Positions 1-44,417 of a stretch of 44,417 bases of DNA are shown piece after piece; the first letter of the stretch is position 1, and each line of letters starts with the position of its first letter. The DNA is taken from the IMG/VR virus record IMGVR_UViG_2606217118_000001; one strand, written 5' to 3'. The notes below the pieces were generated by a model. It was not told the DNA's origin. It was given only the letters and a program-made list of their open reading frames with translations, and ran no database searches. The stretch comes from a virus (taxonomy: Duplodnaviria > Heunggongvirae > Uroviricota > Caudoviricetes). The position numbers and the translations under genes are program-made.

Positions 1-276
1 TTACCGACTGCGGCCTGAGTTTTTTAAGTGACGTAAAATCGTGTTGAGGCCAACGCCCATAATGCGGGCAGTTGCCCGGCATCCAACGCCATTCATGGCC
101 ATATCAATGATTTTCTGGTGCGTACCGGGTTGAGAAGCGGTGTAAGTGAACTGCAGTTGCCATGTTTTACGGCAGTGAGAGCAGAGATAGCGCTGATGTC
201 CGGCGGTGCTTTTGCCGTTACGCACCACCCCGTCAGTAGCTGAACAGGAGGGACAGCTGATAGAAACAGAAGCCAC
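1..276 (-). CDS. insA: IS1 InsA transposition regulator
   Basis: 91 aa [40 protein letters not shown]... recognised as IS1 InsA. Confidence 0.9.
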
Positions 277-1080: not shown

Positions 1081-1662
1081 TTACCCTATAGGTGCTACTG
1101 GCCATTCAATATCCGGTGCAGTTGTTGTATTAACACGGTTCAGCAACACCCGATACTTCTTCCAGGCTTCCAGCAACGAGATTTCTTCCTCCGTTGCGAT
1201 TTCCAGATCTACAGCATCCTGAAGTGGCGCAATATGCTCACTGGCTACCTGCATCAGGCTGTTTTTTGTTTCTTCTGCCTCCCGGATCCGGAACAGTTTT
1301 TCTGCTTCCGTATCCTTCACCCAGGCTGTGCCGTTCCACTTCTGAAACTCCCCTTCCGGCGATAACCAGGTAACATTTTCCGCTAACGGACCGAGTTCAG
1401 AAATAAATAACGCGTCGCCGGAAGCCACGTCATAGACCGTTTTACCCCGATGGTCTTCAACGAGATGCCACGATGCCTCATCACTGTTGAAAACAGCCAC
1501 AAAGCCAGCCGGAATATCTGGCGGTGCAATATCGGTACTGTTTGCTGGCAGACCTGTATGAGGCGGAATATATGCGTCACCTTCACCAATAAATTCATTA
1601 GTTCCGGCCAGCAGATTATAAATTGTTATGGTCCGTGGTTGTTCACTCATTCTGAATGCCAT
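1081..1662 (-). CDS. tfa: Tail fiber assembly protein (lambda Tfa-like)
   Basis: 193 aa, [24 protein letters not shown]...; start overlaps stf stop. Confidence 0.9.
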
Positions 1663-4600
1663 TATGCAAGCCTCACAATATAGTTAAATGCGATGTTTTT
1701 GACGGTGTTTTCCGCGTTACCAGCAGCGTTAACGGTGATGGTGTGTCCATGTGAGCCAATCGCAACCGAGTGCGTATGAGCACCAATACCGACAGTATGT
1801 GCGTGTGCACCTGCGCTTGCAGCAGTGCCGGACAGTGAGTGGGTATGAGCACCATCTGATGATGTCTTCCCTGCATTACGAGTCTGGCCACTACCGCTTG
1901 TTGTGCTCATAATCCCCGCGCTTGGATTTGAAATCGCGGTATAACCATTAGGGAAAATGCTCGTGTTCGTGCCACCAAATGCACCGGAACTCTTGTGTTG
2001 GTGCGCACCGGCACTATTTGCGGTCCCGCTAATACTATGGGTATGCGCCCCGGTGTTATTCGTGGATTTGGTTCCGTAATCAAACGACGATGTGGTTTTC
2101 GTCCCCAAATCCGTACTGGATGCGCTGGCGCTGTGGGTATGCGATTTAATGCCGTCCTGTTCCTGAGACAATACGGCCCGACCACTGGCAGGTTTGCCCT
2201 TAATCGTCCAGCCACGCATATCAGGGATCACGCCTGACGGATAAGCCGCTGCAAGTTTCGGGTAGGCAGATTTGTCAAAAGCCTGCCCCTGCATCAGGGC
2301 ATAGCCAGACGGAACGGTATCTGATGGCCACGGGATTGGTGCGCCGACTGGGTAGCTTTCTGGTGGAAGATTTTTCGAGGTATAAACTTCTGCCCAGTCT
2401 TCCTCAAAACCATAGCCATCTCTTGAGGAACGGTAGAACAGACCTCCATTTCTGTAATGCGCCTTCATCTGCAGGGTCCGGCAACTTCCGACTCCGGTAT
2501 AGAAGTTAACCAGAATATAGCTGTCGCCAGAGCGGGTGACATTGTAAGCGCCTGATTCGGCATTCCAGGGAACGCCACCATCCGCATCGGCATATGTATC
2601 CGTTGCCCTTCTGGCAAAAGCAGCCACATGCGCGGCGGTTAAAGTAATATCTTTGGAACCATCAAACTCAACACCAGAAACCAGTCTTGGCGTTTGCAGC
2701 TTTGTTGCTGTTAATGCATTACCGTTCAGACTTGCGGACAGTTTGGTTCCAATAATCAGTTCGCCGGTTGCGTTATCAATAGCAAACGGTCTTAATGTAT
2801 TCCAGCCACCATAAACATCACCTTGATTGGTAAGCAGCAGGTAAGTTTTAGCGCCATCATTACGCCATAATGCACCATACTCCCCACCTATCATTCGAAT
2901 CTGATTACCACCACGCGCTACAATTTCGTCTGTGGCAAAAAGTTTTTTGCACGACAAGTTATCGTTAACGATTAACGAATGAGACTCATAAAAACCACGC
3001 CCACTCTTAAAATCAAGGATAACGTCCGCCGCGATACATTCAGTCGCCGGATTTGTTGCCCCAAACTTATAGGTCGTATCATTAACAACGAGATCAGCAC
3101 CAGGTGCGGATATTGACAGGCCATCTTCGATAAACGCAAAAACAGGGAAAGCAGCGCCATCAACATAGAACACAGAGCGCAAATCATCGCCCTTATTACT
3201 CATCATTATTGAGTGGATGGCTCGTTCATTGTTTTGATATTGCCAGAACATTCCATAAGCATAACGCCCCCTGTCAGTCCAGCCACCAGGCATAACAAAT
3301 CCGTTAAACTCGCAGTTATTCATCGGATCGCCTGCGGTTCGCGTTGCCGTGGTGATAATGACCCTTGATGCCAGTTCGCTTACTGAGCCAGCAGAACGCA
3401 TAACAACAACAGGGTAATATTTTCCAGATGTTGCACCTGCAGGAGCGTTAACCCGCACATAACGCATACCACGCTTATCAGCAAAGTCTGTTTTACTGAC
3501 CGCGTTAATGTTGTTCAGGAAGCGTCCCTTATCGGGTATATCAGCGCCGTTCTGGTCTTTCTGCAGACGTTTCTCTGCATTGTCATAGGCTGATTTTACT
3601 GCCTTTGGCGTTGCCGCCAGCGTTTCAGACGTACTGTTGGTCGCACTGCTGAGCTGTACTACCCCCTTTTTCGTCGTGCTCGCATCCTCAAGCGCCACGG
3701 CGGATGCAATATCCTCTGCCCGTTTTGCCGCTGTCTCGGCGCGCGTTGCCGCGGATTCCGCCGTACTTTTGCTCTGTGCTGCCGCTGCCGCACTGCCAGC
3801 TGCCTCTGTCGCCTTCGTGGATGCTGTCGTGGCGCTGCCCTTCGCTGCTGACGCCTGTCTGGTCGCCTCATCTTTTGAAGCAGACGCCGATGATGCCGAT
3901 GACGCCGCCGAACTGGCTGACGATGCGGCAGCCGTTTTTGAGGATTCTGCGCTGGTTTCCGACGCTTTCGCGTTCGTTTCGGATGTCTTCGCTGCGGAAG
4001 CAGACCTCGCTGCTGCGCTGGCCTGTTCAGTGGCTTCGCCAGCCTTCGTTGTGGCTGTTGAAGCAGACGATGCGGCACTTTCTGCCGACTTTCCGGCAGC
4101 GGTGGCACTGGCTGAGGCCTGCCCGGCACTGGCTGAGGCCTGCCCGGCACTTGTTGACGCGGCGCTGGCAGACGACGCAGCCGCTGTTTTTGAGCCTGCC
4201 GCAGCTGAGGCACTCTGTCCCGCTGCCGTTTCAGAAGACTTAGCGTTCGTCTCGGACGTTTTGGCCGCCTTCGCAGAATTTGCTGTCGCCGTTGCCGAGG
4301 AAGCTGCGCTGCTGGCGCTCGAGGCTGCGCTCGTTTCTGATGATTTTGCCGCCTCTTTTGAAGCTGACGCATCCCGGGCTGAGGTGGCAGCTTCTGACGC
4401 TTTCGTGGTCGCGGTGGATGCAGAAGTGGCTGCTGATTGTTGTGACGCTGCCGCATTCGTTTCTGACGTTTTCGCCGCAGCGGCACTGGTGGCCGCCGCG
4501 CTTTTTGAGGACTCTGCAGCGGCAGCACTTTTTTCCGCTTCAGTGGCCTTTGTTGATGCCGTTCCTGCGCTGGAAGACGCTGACTGAGCCGACGACGCGG

Positions 4601-5084
4601 CCTGTCCGGCTGACGTGCTGGCTGCGCGTGCTGAGCCTGCAGCATCAGTCGCATGGGTTGCCGCCTCACGGGCTGATGTGCCGGCATCGCTGGCTGACTT
4701 CTTCGCGGCTGCCGTGTTCTGTGCCACCGCGGACGCGTTACGCGCCACCTCTTCCACCATCAGTTCAAAACGGCGCAGAGCCTCAGGACGGGCATCATCC
4801 TCTGTCATGGCACCGAGAAAATCATTCAGCGTACCGGGTTGAGAATCTTCATACACGGTAATGGTCCCGGCATGTGATGGCGGGAATCCCTCCACCAACA
4901 GACTGACGCTGTACTGACCATACTCGACGTCCATTGTGTAACGCCCGGCTTCATCCGGGTTTTCTGAGGCCACTGTGTTCACCACCACCGTGGTGCTGTT
5001 GCGCCTGGCCTTTAGCTGAATGGTGCAGTTTTGTATCGGCTTACCTGCGCCATCTTTCAGTACACCTGAAATCCGTACTGCCAT
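1662..5084 (-). CDS. stf: Side tail fiber protein (Stf-like), 1140 aa with long Ala/Ser-rich low-complexity region and C-terminal His-rich GAHTHS motifs
   Basis: N-terminus [31 protein letters not shown]... resembles lambda Stf; SD GGGGGG upstream; internal tandem repeats. Confidence 0.85.
4108..4149. repeat. Perfect 21-bp tandem duplication (ctggctgaggcctgcccggca x2) inside stf low-complexity region
   Basis: Two identical adjacent 21-mers at 4108-4128 and 4129-4149; encodes repeated SAGQASA heptad. Confidence 0.9.
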
Positions 5085-5148: not shown

Positions 5149-5748
5149 TCAGAATTTATAACCGACACCAACGATGAAACTGTTGGTACGCCAGTCACCG
5201 CTGCCGGAGCCTTCATAAGCAATATCAATGGCCACGGATTCGGTCGGGTTAAACTGCACGCCAGCTCCCCACGCCAGAGACGTGTTGCTGTGGCGACCGT
5301 CATCACTTCCGGTCAGCACGTCGTGCGTTTTCCCCTTGTTGTCAGTTACGCGGAGATAATCCCCGGAGAAAGTCGACACACGGCTGTAAGCCACACCCGC
5401 CATCGCATACGCGCTGAACCATTCATTCACGCGCACAGACGGCCCCGCCATCACGCTGAACCAGCGGTTACGAACGGAATCTTCATGCCAGCGGGTATCG
5501 CTGTAACGGGTAAGCTGGCGATTCTTGTCTCCTGCATAGCTGAATGACGTCACCATCCCCAGTGTGTCCGTAAACTCATAACGGTATTTCACGTTAATCC
5601 CGTTCAGATCATCGCTGCCGGGAACGTTCGTCGAGGCATGAAGATACCCCGCGCTCAGCGTGGACTGATGTTCAGATGCCCATGCAGGCGCACCGGATAC
5701 GGCCAGACAAATGGCTGCGGACAAAATTGCTGCACAAACTTTACGCAT
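5149..5748 (-). CDS. lom: Outer membrane protein Lom (Ail/Lom/PagC family)
   Basis: 199 aa with signal peptide [24 protein letters not shown] and beta-barrel-like C-terminus ending GVGYKF. Confidence 0.9.
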
Positions 5749-5818
5749 AATTACCTCTCGCTTTTCTGCAATAAAAAAGGCGTCATTCCTGACGCCCTTT
5801 ATTGGGGTTATAACAATT

Positions 5819-8800
5819 TCAACGAATACTGATGCCGGAAGCGGCTTTTTTGGTCACAATCACCGTACAGTCGGTGATATTACCTGCCCACTGATTGCCT
5901 TTATGGAAAACCTTAAACTCCAGAGTGACGTTTCCCCTGCCACTCGGCATATCAATAACCGCACTGTAGCTACCGGGAATGGCCCCTTTAGTTTCTCTGG
6001 ATGCGATTAATACACCGTTTTTGCGAACTTCAAAACCATAACCCGTGTATCTTGTACTTCCCGGGTTATTACCACTTCCCGGATCGCTATACGCTATTCC
6101 GTTAAAGATAATGGGCGGAATAATGATTTGACGGTCAAAGTTATGATCATCGCTGATGGTGACTGTAACCGTCCCGTTTGGTGTTTCCGTATTACCCCAC
6201 GTACCAGCCTGTTTCGGGAATGATTTGGATACAGCTTTAACGAAGTCACCTCTGACCTGAGTCGCCTCCAGCATGCCCTTAATCGTACAGTTTTCATTTA
6301 CCGTGACATTGTTGAGCGTCCCGGCGTTCGCATTCACACTGCCACTGATATCCGCATTTTTAGCGGTCAGCTTTCCGTCCGGTGTCAGGGAAAATGCCGG
6401 TGGATTTCCACCGCTGGTAATGGTGGGGGCCGTCAGGCGTTTCAGGAACACGTCGTTCATGAATATCTGATCGCCCTGACCAACAAACATCGGTTTTGTG
6501 TTGCCATTCGCAGGATTAACCATCGCAATCCTGTCCGCCGCCAGCAGCACCTGACTCTGCATGCCGTCAGGGGTGTTCTCAATACCGGCACCAATACCCG
6601 CGATATAAAGGCGTCCGTCCTGCATCTGCTGCAGCTTCACAGCCCACATGCTGTTCAGGTTATTATTTGTATCAACCTGAACTTTCTGTATCTGCTGGAT
6701 TGCCGCACTCTGGTCTTCCAGTTTTTTATTGACGGTCTGCGTGATTTCATTGCTGACATTCGTAATGGACGTCCTGATTTCAGCCAGGTCCGGCGCAAGC
6801 TGACCGTTATCAATCTGCGTCCACAGCTCCTGGGCCAGATGTGTTTTCCCGATTTCTCCTTTGAAAAAATCCAGGTAACCTTCCGCATCATCGCTCGCCC
6901 GACCGACAGCCTCCACGAATGCCGATTTGCCAACAGTGTTCACACTGCGAACGTAAAAATAATAATCATGACCCGGCTTGATATTGATACTGGCAGCTAT
7001 CCAGTACAGCGCCGTGCCAAGATAGCGGGCTGTAGTTTCAACCTGCCTGATATCGGTAATCCGCTTTTCCGAGAACCAGAACTCAAACTGTACCGTCGGG
7101 TCATAAACGGCAAGATGCGGCGTTGCGGTTATCTGAAAATAGCCCGGCGTCAGTTCAATCCGCGACGGCGTCGCCGGTGCGGCAATCCGGAACAATACCG
7201 ACGCCGGATCGCCCTGCTGTCCCCACGCATTTACCGCCCGGACTGTCAGCCTGTAGTTTCCCAGCGCCAGCTGCCTGAAGCGGTATGTGGTTTCCGTCGT
7301 CCGGGCTGTGCTGACCAGCCGCTCACTGCCATCGTCCGCTGTCACGGTCAGGCGAAGCATAAAGCTCACCCCCTTCACCACCTTCGGTGTGTCCCAGCGC
7401 GCCAGCACCTGATATTCCCCGCTGTCTGCGGAGACTTCGGCTGTCAGGTGCTGTACCGCTGGCGGCGTGACACCATTCACCGTGCCGCTCAAATCGCCGT
7501 CAAAGTGCGCCCCGTTATCCACGATGGCCTCTTTTTCCGGTACATGCTGCACGGCAGTGATGGCATACGTGCCGTCATCGTTCTCACGGATACTCACACA
7601 GCGGAACAGGCGCTGGCGCAACGTCGGCAACTTCAGCCCCCATACGCTGTATCCGGCAACGCCGTCAGGAACACGGCTCACTTTTACCTTCACGCCGTCG
7701 GTGACGGACTGGACCTCCACGCTGACCGGATTGCCACTTCCGTCAACCAGGCTTATCAGCGTGGTGCCGGAAGATGGCAGCGTGATTTCACGGTCGAGCG
7801 TCAGCGTCCGGGTCTGGCTGTTCACCGCCAGCACGCGCCCGCCGGTGCTGATACCGGCATAGTCATCATCGCAGATTTCAATGACATCGCCCGGTACATG
7901 GCGAAGCCCTTCAGCACCCACGCTGAAGTCCACGGTCTGCGTTTCCAGCAGCTCCGTTTTAATCAGCCACAGCCCGGCTCGGTGTGCCTGCCCCCGGCTG
8001 GTACAGCCAAAGGCATCCATCTTCGTGACGTTACGACCATAACGGGCAATGGCCTGCGTGTCCTCCACAAGCTCTGTCGCCGTCTCCCAGCCGTTATCCG
8101 GGTCAATCCAGTTCACCTCAACGGCATTATGGCGGTCCTTGAGGGCGCTGAAGCTGTAGCGGAACGGCGCGCCATCATCCGGCATCACCACATTACTGCG
8201 GTTATAGGTCCACACCTTATCCGACGGTCGGTCCTGCACGAACGTCAGCGTCTGCCCGTTCCATACCGGCATACAGCGCATCGCCGAGCAGAAATCACTG
8301 AGCACATCCCACGCCTTGCGCTGTGTGGTCAGGTACGCATTACAGGTGATGCGCGGCTCCGTGCCGCCAAAGCCGTCCGGCACTGACTGGTCGCAGTACT
8401 GGCCGATGACATACAGCGCCCATTTGTCCACATCCGCCGCACCAAGACGTTTCCCCATGCCGTAGCGTGGGTGGGTCAGCATATCCCACAGACACCAGGC
8501 CATGTTATTGCTGTATGCTGGCTTAAACGTTCCGTCCCAGATACCGCTGTATTGCCGCGTCTGCGGGTTATAATTCGACGGCACCTGCAGAATACGCCCG
8601 CGCAGATGATAATTACGGCTCACCTGCTGGCTGCCGAACTGCTCCGAGTCCACCTGCACACCGACCAGTGCCGTGTTCGGGTAGCACTGTTTCACATCGA
8701 TGATTTCGGTGTATGACGACCAGAGCGTTTTGTTCTGCAGCTGGTCTGTGGTGCTGTCCGGCGTCATCCTGCGCATCCGTATACTGAACGGGCGCGGCGG

Positions 8801-9316
8801 CAGGTTATCCACCACCACCGAGGCCAGATACTGCGAGGTGGTTTTGCCCTTAATGGTGATGTCTTTTTCCGTCACCCAGCCACCGTTACGCTGTATCTGA
8901 ACCAGCAGGCGGACTTCCGACGGATTCCTGTCACCCTTTGAGGTGGTTTCCACCAGTGCCTGTACACCGAAGGTAAAGCGCAGACGGTCGATGTTTGCCG
9001 ACGTGATGGTCCGGGTGATCGGCGTGTCATATTTCACTTCCGTACCCAGCACCGTCTCGGAGCCGGAGGATTCAAATCCCTCCGGCGGTGACTGCTCCTG
9101 CTCACCGGCCCGGAACACCACCGTGACGCCGGATATATTGGTATTCCCCTCACTGTCCAGCACCGGCGTACTGTTCAGCAGCACGCTTTTTAATCCATCC
9201 ACCGGACCTTCAACCGGCCCTTCGCTGATGGCATCGATCACACTCAGCAGCTGCGTGGACTTCAGGTTGTCCTTCGCTTCGCGCGGGGTATGCCCCTTAC
9301 TGCTGCCTTTACCCAT
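5819..9316 (-). CDS. J: Tail tip host-specificity protein J (central fiber); C-terminal receptor-binding region differs from lambda J
   Basis: 1165 aa, N-terminus [34 protein letters not shown]... matches lambda J; C-terminal ~150 aa do not match recalled lambda sequence. Confidence 0.95.
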
Positions 9317-28190: not shown

Positions 28191-28603
28191 AAGTAACCAC
28201 TCTTAACAGCATAACCAATTTTTTACGTACGTAAACCACTAAATGATATTTGCGAGAATGCTACCGAGTATTGAAAACACCACTACAAATACATAAGCAA
28301 ATCTCAACAAATAACCAACAAATAATTTCCAGCGTTATTTTTAGCTGGTTTAAATTGAATCTTCAAATTATAGAGCACTTATAAATAACAGCCATTAATA
28401 TAAATTGGCTAATAGATTTATTTTTATTCAGCCAAGAGCCATGAATAGGATTCGATAGAAAAAGTTCAGATAAAAATAGAGATCTACTTCACAAATCAAA
28501 TGAGAAACCAAAACTTACATCTTGAAATAATCACATTGATTAGATGAATATTTATCGCGCAGTGACATCATTTTTTAATAATAGTTCAAAAAAAGGGCTC
28601 ACG

Positions 28604-29686
28604 ATGAAAAAATTAACAGTGGCAATTTCTGCTGTAGCTGCATCAGTACTGATGGCGATGTCTGCTCAGGCAGCTGAAATTTATAATAAAGACAGTAACA
28701 AGCTGGATCTGTACGGGAAAGTTAATGCTAAGCACTACTTCTCCTCTAATGATGCAGATGATGGTGATACTACTTATGCCCGTCTTGGCTTCAAAGGTGA
28801 AACCCAAATCAACGATCAACTGACTGGTTTCGGTCAGTGGGAATATGAATTCAAAGGCAACCGCGCTGAATCTCAAGGTTCCTCCAAAGATAAAACCCGT
28901 CTTGCCTTCGCTGGCCTGAAATTCGGTGACTACGGCTCCATCGATTATGGCCGTAACTACGGTGTAGCATACGATATTGGTGCATGGACCGACGTTCTGC
29001 CAGAATTCGGTGGCGATACCTGGACCCAAACAGATGTATTCATGACTGGTCGCACCACAGGTGTTGCAACTTATCGTAACAATGACTTCTTTGGTCTGGT
29101 TGATGGTCTGAACTTTGCTGCTCAGTATCAGGGTAAAAATGACCGCACTGACGTAACTGAAGCTAATGGTGATGGTTTCGGTTTCTCCACTACTTATGAG
29201 TATGAAGGATTCGGTGTAGGTGCAACCTATGCTAAATCTGACCGCACTAATAATCAGGTTATCTACGGTAACAACAGCCTGAATGCATCTGGTCAAAATG
29301 CTGAAGTATGGGCAGCTGGTCTGAAATATGATGCGAACAACATCTATCTGGCTACCACCTATTCTGAAACCCAGAACATGACTGTTTTTGGTAATAACCA
29401 TATTGCCAACAAAGCACAAAACTTCGAAGTAGTTGCACAATATCAGTTCGACTTCGGTCTGCGTCCGTCCGTTGCTTACCTGCAATCTAAAGGAAAAGAC
29501 TTGGGTGCGTGGGGTGATCAGGACCTGGTTGAATATATTGATGTAGGTGCAACCTATTACTTCAACAAAAATATGTCCACTTTTGTTGATTACAAAATCA
29601 ACCTGATTGATAAGAGCGATTTCACGAAAGCATCTGGCGTTGCTACCGATGATATCGTTGCTGTAGGTATGGTTTACCAGTTCTAA
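28604..29686 (+). CDS. Outer membrane porin, OmpC/OmpF/PhoE family (phage-borne Lc/NmpC-like)
   Basis: Signal peptide [39 protein letters not shown]..., C-terminal ...VGMVYQF; AAGGG SD; longer upstream ORF extension rejected. Confidence 0.9.
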
Positions 29687-41986: not shown

Positions 41987-42531
41987 GCGAAATTAACTCT
42001 CAGGCACTGCGTGAGGCGGCAGTAGCAATTGAAACAGTAGCAACACCTCAAAAATTGCTGGCATTTCGTATGAAAGTCACACCTCAGGTTGTGCTGGCTC
42101 TACTGGATGAACGAGATGCATTAAATGAACGCCTAGCCGAACTGGAGGCTGATTTAGCAGGGCTGGCCGAAGACCACCAGAAAGCGACTGAGTCAATTAA
42201 GCAGGCTGATGCAGCTGTTAAGTTGGCACACGAGAAGTTTTCGGCGCTGGCGGCGGAGAATGAGCTGGCTCGTAAAGCAGTTCAGGAATTCTGCGATGTT
42301 GTTGGCGACAGCACCGAGGTTATCTGCGAGGAGATTGGGAGAGATGGTGTTCTGGTTATTTTGGAGGCCATGAAGGCAACAGGAAATATGCCAGCCACCG
42401 ATGCTTTCCTGGCTGAAGTACGGGCGCAGGGGGTGGAGATGATGCGCGAACATCCATCAATCAAACTTTGCTCTTTGACGCACATATGTGATGAGTTAGC
42501 CGCCCAGCTTCGCAAAGGAGGCAACCAGTGA
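41983..42531 (+). CDS. ea22: Ea22-like protein (coiled-coil), unknown function
   Basis: 182 aa MSEINSQALREAAVAIETVATPQKLLAFRMKVTPQVVLALLDERDALNERLAELEADLAG... Confidence 0.65.
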   Translation: MSEINSQALREAAVAIETVATPQKLLAFRMKVTPQVVLALLDERDALNERLAELEADLAGLAEDHQKATESIKQADAAVKLAHEKFSALAAENELARKAVQEFCDVVGDSTEVICEEIGRDGVLVILEAMKATGNMPATDAFLAEVRAQGVEMMREHPSIKLCSLTHICDELAAQLRKGGNQ

Positions 42532-43764: not shown

Positions 43765-43778
43765 TGGCGGTTTTTTGT
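43754..43778 (+). terminator. Rho-independent terminator after small ORF
   Basis: gccgcc-tgat-ggcgg hairpin followed by TTTTTT. Confidence 0.7.
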
Positions 43779-43779
43779 G

Positions 43780-44417
43780 CACAGAAAACCCCCAGCTAGG
43801 CTGGGGGTTCCGGAAAGCTTTCAGCTTTGAGCCAGTTATTAAAACCCCTTTTGATTTGTTAAAACACCTTGCGGTCTGGCAACTGCAAGTGTCAAACAAG
43901 AAATCAAAAGGGGGTCCCAATGGGGAACGAAAAGAGCTTAGCGCACACCCGATGGAACTGTAAATATCACATAGTTTTTGCGCCAAAATACCGAAGACAA
44001 GTGTTCTACAGAGAGAAGCGTAGAGCAATAGGCAGTATTTTGAGAAAGCTGTGTGAGTGGAAAAGCGTACGGATTCTTGAAGCTGAATGCTGTGCAGATC
44101 ATATCCATATGCTTGTGGAGATCCCGCCCAAAATGAGTGTATCCGGCTTTATGGGATATCTGAAAGGGAAAAGCAGTCTGATGCTTTACGAGCAGTTTGG
44201 TGATTTGAAATTCAAATACAGGAACAGAGAGTTCTGGTGCAGAGGGTACTACGTCGATACGGTGGGTAAGAACACGGCGAAGATACAGGATTACATAAAG
44301 CACCAGCTTGAAGAGGATAAAATGGGAGAGCAGTTATCGATTCCCTATCCGGGCAGCCCGTTTACGGGCCGTAAGTAACGAAGTTGGATGCAAATGTCAG
44401 ATCGTGTGCGCCTGTTA
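43780..44417 (+). mobile_element. IS200-family insertion sequence, partial (left-end hairpins plus tnpA; right end beyond window)
   Basis: Left-end palindromes cccccagc-tag-gctggggg and gaaagctttc followed by an IS200-type TnpA ORF. Confidence 0.8.
43920..44378 (+). CDS. tnpA: IS200/IS605-family Y1 (HUH) transposase TnpA
   Basis: Start MGNEKSLAHTRWNCKYHIVFAPKYRRQVFYREKRRAIGSILRKLCEWKSVRILEAECCADHIHMLVEIPPK (152 aa). Confidence 0.9.
   Translation: MGNEKSLAHTRWNCKYHIVFAPKYRRQVFYREKRRAIGSILRKLCEWKSVRILEAECCADHIHMLVEIPPKMSVSGFMGYLKGKSSLMLYEQFGDLKFKYRNREFWCRGYYVDTVGKNTAKIQDYIKHQLEEDKMGEQLSIPYPGSPFTGRK

Follow-up and report, generated by a model that had tools for sequence, protein, structure and literature searches.

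The analysis of a 44,417-nucleotide stretch of DNA from a lambdoid prophage (hereafter the window) focused on the tip attachment gene J and on the genes that follow it on the minus strand. The neighbours of J are those found in lambda, with homologues of I, K, L and M on the upstream side and, on the downstream side, an intrinsic terminator followed by lom, stf and tfa. The order of open reading frames in the window (H-M-L-K-I-J-lom-stf-tfa) agrees with that annotated for mEp332, 434 and lambda. The features at the locus are as follows.

5819..9316, minus strand: gene J for the tip attachment (host specificity) protein, 1165 aa and a stop codon (ORF list and translation)
5773..5796, minus strand: intrinsic terminator after J, with the hairpin GGCGTCA-GGAA-TGACGCC (5779-5796) followed by TTTTTT
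5149..5748, minus strand: lom, Ail/Lom outer-membrane protein (PF06316 Ail_Lom, 404 bits, full length)
1662..5084, minus strand: stf, intact side tail fibre gene, 1140 aa (Pfam phage_tail_N, Gp34_trimer, Collar)
1081..1662, minus strand: tfa, tail fibre assembly chaperone (93% identical to lambda orf-194; Pfam Caudo_TAP)

The J product matches the NCBIfam model NF049904 (lambda_TipJ) with 2337 bits against a cut-off of 1950, and its residues 1-1165 cover profile positions 1-1163 of 1163; given the 1163-position length of this profile, the long form of J found here fits the curated model end to end. The Pfam domains follow one another as PF24801 (FNIII-A_GpJ), PF13550 (Phage-tail_3), PF24421 (Ig_J), PF24489 (Ig_J_second), PF09327 (Phage_Tail_Tip) and PF12421 (Ig_GpJ_C), so that the expected architecture of hub domains, two FNIII/Ig domains, a tail-tip fibre and a C-terminal receptor-binding domain is present. 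An identical protein has already been deposited publicly under the accession WP_032252786.1, where it is named "host specificity protein J." An opposite-strand ORF of 99 aa (5711..6010), which falls within J and lom, was also considered as a gene and rejected for want of any support.

Downstream of J, phage 434 shares the order J, terminator, lom and stf with the window, and a terminator is likewise annotated in its J-lom gap. The stf gene of the window is intact, whereas that of laboratory lambda is split by a known frameshift and the stf region of mEp332 is annotated as two separate smaller CDSs; the Stf of 434 is a distinct, shorter protein (1314-nt gene). Both ends of the window Stf are lambda-like, with residues 1-286 being 85% identical to lambda orf-401 and the distal 230 residues (911-1140, with histidine-rich repeats) 70% identical to lambda orf-314. 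Its extra length consists of an added Ala/Ser-rich repeat and a middle segment carrying the Gp34_trimer and Collar domains, and this middle (about residues 510-910) is without a counterpart in lambda Stf.

Beyond tfa, the window starts inside an IS1 element (1-330), where the corresponding DNA carries an IS1A-family transposase annotation in RefSeq and where the ORF at 1..276 on the minus strand is presumably the small N-terminal IS1 transposase protein. The window start is probably an assembly break in the IS1 repeat. Between this IS1 copy and tfa, the segment 500-1000 is low in G+C (about 30%), and its ORFs do not exceed 48 aa; mEp332 and ev099 conserve the segment, and the mEp332 annotation places no CDS in it.

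Three modules within J

By comparing window J with lambda J (NC_001416; NP_040600.1; 1132 aa), identity was found to change abruptly along the protein. Residues 1-820 are identical to lambda at 797 of 820 positions (97.2%) without gaps; residues 821-900 fall to 19 of 52 (36%) with a 28-residue gap; residues 901-1015 recover to 88 of 115 (76.5%), again without gaps; and residues 1016-1165 drop to 57 of 139 (41%), with 17 gap columns and five indels. At the nucleotide level, identity to lambda is 0.95 at window positions 6416-6317 and then 0.45-0.63 from 6316 to 5817, and this drop at 6316 means that the interval 5819-6300, which had been singled out in a preliminary description of this DNA, coincides with the divergent 3′ cassette. 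Identities of 97% and 41% inside one protein reflect a recombination mosaic rather than chance. J of this prophage is a mosaic of three modules, the last two joined by a conserved linker.

6857..9316, minus strand: lambda-like Module 1 with the hub domains and two FNIII/Ig domains, residues 1-820 (amino acid and nucleotide identity)
6467..6856, minus strand: Module 2 with the alpha-helical shaft and the upper straight fibre, residues about 821-950 (identity profile, indel map)
6272..6466, minus strand: conserved linker, residues about 951-1015 (nucleotide identity to lambda 0.84-0.95 over window 6516-6317)
5822..6271, minus strand: Module 3, residues 1016-1165, Ig-like receptor-binding domain of phage-434 type, predicted OmpC binder (identity, Pfam, fold)

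The name alpha-helical shaft and the other J domain names follow Ge & Wang 2024. Module 1 is shared widely, with amino acid identities of 97.2% to lambda, 98.3% to 434 and 97.4% to cdtI and a nucleotide identity to lambda of 0.90-0.99 per 100-nt bin. Module 2 separates window J from both lambda and 434: over residues 821-900 their amino acid identity to it is only 36-38%, with a gap of 28 residues, whereas that of cdtI reaches 98.8%, and nucleotide identity over the module is 0.25-0.64 to lambda and 434, 0.96-0.98 to cdtI and 94-96% to mEp332 over most of its length. This longer shaft allele is common to cdtI, Ayreon and mEp332 and distinct from the shafts of lambda and 434. Near position 7000, not far from where this module begins, G+C falls from a value of about 0.60 to one of about 0.49.

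The 33 residues by which window J exceeds lambda J (1165 versus 1132 aa) fall mostly within the shaft. The indel map places +21 (window residues 836-856) and +7 (860-866) in the alpha-helical shaft, together 28 aa or four heptads relative to both lambda and 434, and +2, +6, +1, +2 and −6, a net +5, in the receptor-binding domain. The preliminary description had reported the greater length correctly, next to the C-terminal divergence; the length is real, but 28 of the 33 residues lie in the shaft (nt 6719-6811), outside the interval it had singled out. The divergent J end and the 33-residue excess are therefore largely unrelated facts. What that description had said of the last ~150 residues, that they do not resemble lambda, is borne out by the 41% identity, 17 gap columns and five indels given above; near-identity to lambda J residues about 985-1132, as expected of a LamB-binding lambda allele, is absent (57 of 139).

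The linker between Modules 2 and 3, which is conserved between window J and lambda J around lambda residue 964, is a likely recombination junction on this evidence. The modules themselves appear to reassort, as judged from two relatives: PhiR49_1 is 99.0% identical over the 3′ 582 nt of J yet covers only 90% of the gene, in two pieces, while mEp332 aligns across the whole gene with a more distant receptor-binding domain (0.87-0.96 nucleotide identity per bin). At the far end of the window, about 640 bases (43777-44417) extend past the end of the mEp332 match at 43776. They also extend past the match to the closest E. coli genomes, which takes in only the initial 1277 bases of a 1918-base query starting at 42500, and a further mosaic junction may lie here, in the early-left region.

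A receptor-binding domain resembling that of phage 434

The divergent end of J remains a gpJ domain. It matches PF12421 (Ig_GpJ_C, [quoted passage not shown]) with 93.2 bits against a cut-off of 26.2, residues 1029-1164 covering profile positions 1-134 of 135, and a phmmer search of PDB sequences returned A8 gpJ (9wca) at 5.8e-59 and lambda gpJ (8xcj, 8iyk) at about 1e-50. An alignment of 21 homologues, which shows a conserved framework including NG, IDMPxGxG and KKxxxGISI around variable loops, was used to build an AlphaFold model of the last 170 residues of J as a monomer. The model is all-beta with a pLDDT of 79 (moderate confidence), and its top four Foldseek matches (8xck, 9wcb, 9wca and 8xcj; E 1e-13 to 1e-14, TMq 0.70-0.71) are lambda gpJ, both closed and open, and OmpC-bound A8 gpJ. 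The J end is thus predicted by this model to adopt the Ig-like beta-sandwich fold of the solved gpJ receptor-binding domains. Accepting lambda alone as the reference, the identity of only 41% could suggest that the C-terminus is a new module unrelated to gpJ domains and directed at a new receptor class. Such a reading carries a negligible probability and is already refuted by the PF12421 membership, PDB hits at or below 1e-50, the gpJ fold matches and 94% identity to 434, and a foreign or unrelated domain was rejected on the same family, PDB and fold matches. The term "non-lambda," as used for this end in the preliminary description, is consequently apt for its divergence from lambda and misleading as to family, since the domain still belongs with gpJ (PF12421 at 93 bits; lambda gpJ structure at ~1e-50).

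The closest relatives of this domain are found among phages with the 434 type of J. Over the last 150 aa, window J is identical to 434 J (UMO75286.1) at 141 positions (94%) and to cdtI J (BAF63351.1) at 146 (97%), in both cases without indels, and the loop lengths of window and 434 domains are equal. A megablast search with the 3′ 582 nt of J found matches in 132 phage records, among them cdtI and PhiR49_1 (99.0%), the long-tailed Stx1a/Stx2c phages, phi458 and Perceval (98.8%), and 434 and lambda h434 imm21 (91.8%). Relative to 434, there are 12 differences in the last 170 residues, and several of them, at window J residues 1036/1037, 1047, 1077, 1087, 1127/1129 and 1143, adjoin specificity hot spots. 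The indels relative to lambda (lambda positions 1011, 1043, 1078, 1099 and 1109-1114) adjoin four peaks of gap entropy, at 1012, 1049, 1077 and 1107, which Maddamsetti et al. (PMC6646904) reported as the marks of separate J lineages in nature. Judged by these identities, the divergent J end is best described as the long-known phage-434 ("h434") allele, within a mosaic family that is likewise known, and it is already deposited and correctly annotated.

Comparison with individual relatives places window J more precisely. The J proteins of cdtI, Ayreon, phi458, ev099 and mEp332 share its length of 1165 aa and its three modules and differ from it only by point differences, with full-length nucleotide identities of 96.3% for cdtI, 96.2% for Ayreon and 94.5% for mEp332. 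Phage 434 J is alike at both ends (98% over residues 1-820; 94% and the same loop lengths over the last 150 aa) and differs in having a short, lambda-type helical shaft in a protein of 1137 aa, against which window residues 821-900 are 38% identical with 28 extra residues. Lambda J, a LamB binder (8IYK, 8XCK, 8XCJ), has the same family, architecture and fold; it differs in a receptor-binding domain of 41% identity with five indels at specificity hot spots and in a helical shaft that is 28 aa shorter. The A8 gpJ chimera (9WCA/9WCB, with OmpC of E. coli EDL933) and phi330 J are further natural OmpC-using gpJ receptor-binding domains, and the A8 domain has the same fold as that of the window (TMq 0.70) and is the best PDB sequence hit, although identity over the Foldseek alignment is 47%. 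Pairwise identities among the phi330, 434 and lambda receptor-binding domains are 35-40% (PMC12502783). Since OmpC is used in several diverged gpJ lineages, these structures serve as analogues and do not represent the same allele. Identification of the window domain with the A8 allele of Brödel et al. was accordingly rejected (the A8 chain, 9wca, is about 47% identical), as was identification with their 1A2 allele (probably the sequence printed before the "GpJ A8" heading, ending in ...KKATAGITIS).

Predicted receptor, signalling and alternatives

The receptor of phage 434 is OmpC, and lambda in which the 434 gene replaces J binds OmpC instead of LamB (PMC3509688, PMC11101478). Other natural gpJ C-termini grafted at lambda residue 964 also retarget lambda to OmpC (PMC11338833). 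Given the likeness of its C-terminal end to 434, window J probably uses OmpC rather than LamB as its receptor. In the sequenced hybrid lambda h434 imm21, the 434 segment extends from about J nucleotide 2133 through lom and stf and is so wide that the hybrid alone does not map OmpC use to the last 150 residues. Receptor data for cdtI, Ayreon, phi458 and the PhiR/mEp series, chosen for receptor-binding domains of at least 97% identity, and for ev099 and mEp332 were found neither in the Ayreon announcement and the PhiR-panel paper nor in literature searches.

In lambda, the four bottom loops (L1-L4) of the receptor-binding domain enter LamB and the signal runs via the straight fibre and the helical shaft: the trimeric domain splays apart, the beta-prism undergoes a twist and the helical shaft a flip, and the tail tip opens (PMC11101478). 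By homology, the Ig-like domain, a trimer that tips the central fibre of this phage, would insert the variable loops at its bottom into a trimeric porin through the extracellular mouth, the porin being OmpC and not LamB for the 434-type allele, and binding would be relayed up the beta-prism and helical shaft until the tail tip opens, as has been shown structurally for lambda and LamB. We infer both the OmpC receptor and this signalling route from such parallels.

The preliminary description had combined the J end with the long Stf fibre in predicting a receptor or host range different from that of lambda. The J part of this argument gains support from the homology to 434, as far as sequence can indicate, but the Stf part does not, as the Stf tip and Tfa resemble those of lambda. 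Ur-lambda Stf itself binds OmpC (PMC12617516); together with the lambda-like Stf ends and Tfa, this leaves Stf with little independent evidence to offer for a non-lambda host range. The differing part of the Stf tip (about residues 1020-1078) could still change specificity.

Two further explanations were weighed against OmpC use by window J. The domain may be 434-like and nonetheless have loop substitutions that shift the receptor (to OmpF, a prophage NmpC/Lc-type porin or LamB) or narrow the range of OmpC variants, and the 12 substitutions relative to 434 over the final 170 aa, of which several adjoin specificity hot spots, lend this some weight, as do the findings that four mutations in lambda J suffice to add OmpF use (PMC6646904) and that the A8 and 1A2 gpJ alleles differ in the OmpC variants they cover. 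We nevertheless consider such a shift unlikely: identity to 434 is 94% with no indels and with every loop length conserved, and the alleles within this 90-99% identity range, present in about 39% of complete E. coli genomes, suggest one functional class. It is more improbable still that the prophage is defective and J a relic without present effect on host range. The window does start inside an IS1 copy, about 750 bp beyond tfa, and no integrase or attachment site was seen within it; against this, an IS1 copy that ends a contig reflects the usual break in assembly rather than damage, J, stf, tfa and lom are open, as are the ORFs collinear with the mEp332 head, tail, lysis and replication genes, and window positions 332-22000 are collinear with deposited phage genomes (96.9% identical for mEp332 and 96.5% for ev099). 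OmpC use by a J protein of 434 type thus remains the preferred reading.

Within OmpC use, the particular combination found here, a shaft that is 28 aa longer joined to a 434-type domain with 12 substitutions near hot spots, could change which OmpC variants are recognised and how readily binding triggers tail opening, a suggestion drawn by analogy that we regard as speculative and rather doubtful. Two OmpC-binding gpJ alleles, A8 and 1A2, covered different subsets of 23 OmpC variants (Brödel et al., PMC11338833), and an effect of the shaft on the ease of triggering is conceivable because the shaft flips on receptor binding in lambda. If true, the shaft cassette would rank as a second determinant of infection, exchanged independently, rather than as a passive spacer.

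The window also encodes an OmpC-family porin of 380 aa (28544-29686, plus strand), which matches NCBIfam NF007841 ("porin OmpC") with 518 bits against a cut-off of 484 and is 61% identical to K-12 OmpC. The mEp332 homologue of this porin is encoded on the opposite strand, with the antiterminator gene on one side and the lysis genes on the other, and related phages annotate it as NmpC or OmpD. The Lc porin of phage PA-2 lowers OmpC levels and excludes OmpC-using phages, and a similar exclusion role for the prophage porin beside an OmpC-binding J would make sense by analogy. Literature searches on PA-2, the Lc porin and nmpC returned nothing relevant.

Abundance of the 434-type tip in E. coli and its meaning

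The distribution of the two tip types among complete E. coli genomes was found to be strongly uneven. The 482-nt segment 5819-6300 is present in 2112 of 5426 genomes, at up to 7 copies per genome, and 2100 of the 2115 matching records reach 90% identity or more with their best match. The corresponding lambda segment, by comparison, occurs in 98 of the 5426, always at an identity of at least 99%, and the five records listed among these 98 are laboratory strains, DE3 lysogens among them. The 434-type tip is thus about twenty times commoner than the lambda tip in complete E. coli genomes, from which it follows that a "non-lambda" J end is the normal natural state.

The finding is therefore correct but ordinary and adds little that is new. 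The receptor could be predicted by typing J on its final 150-170 residues, which is useful for host-range prediction and for the choice of gpJ modules in engineered lambda-based delivery particles and is already practised. Overall, lambda is an unrepresentative reference for its own family, and a J end that departs from it should be the default expectation in a scan of such sequences.
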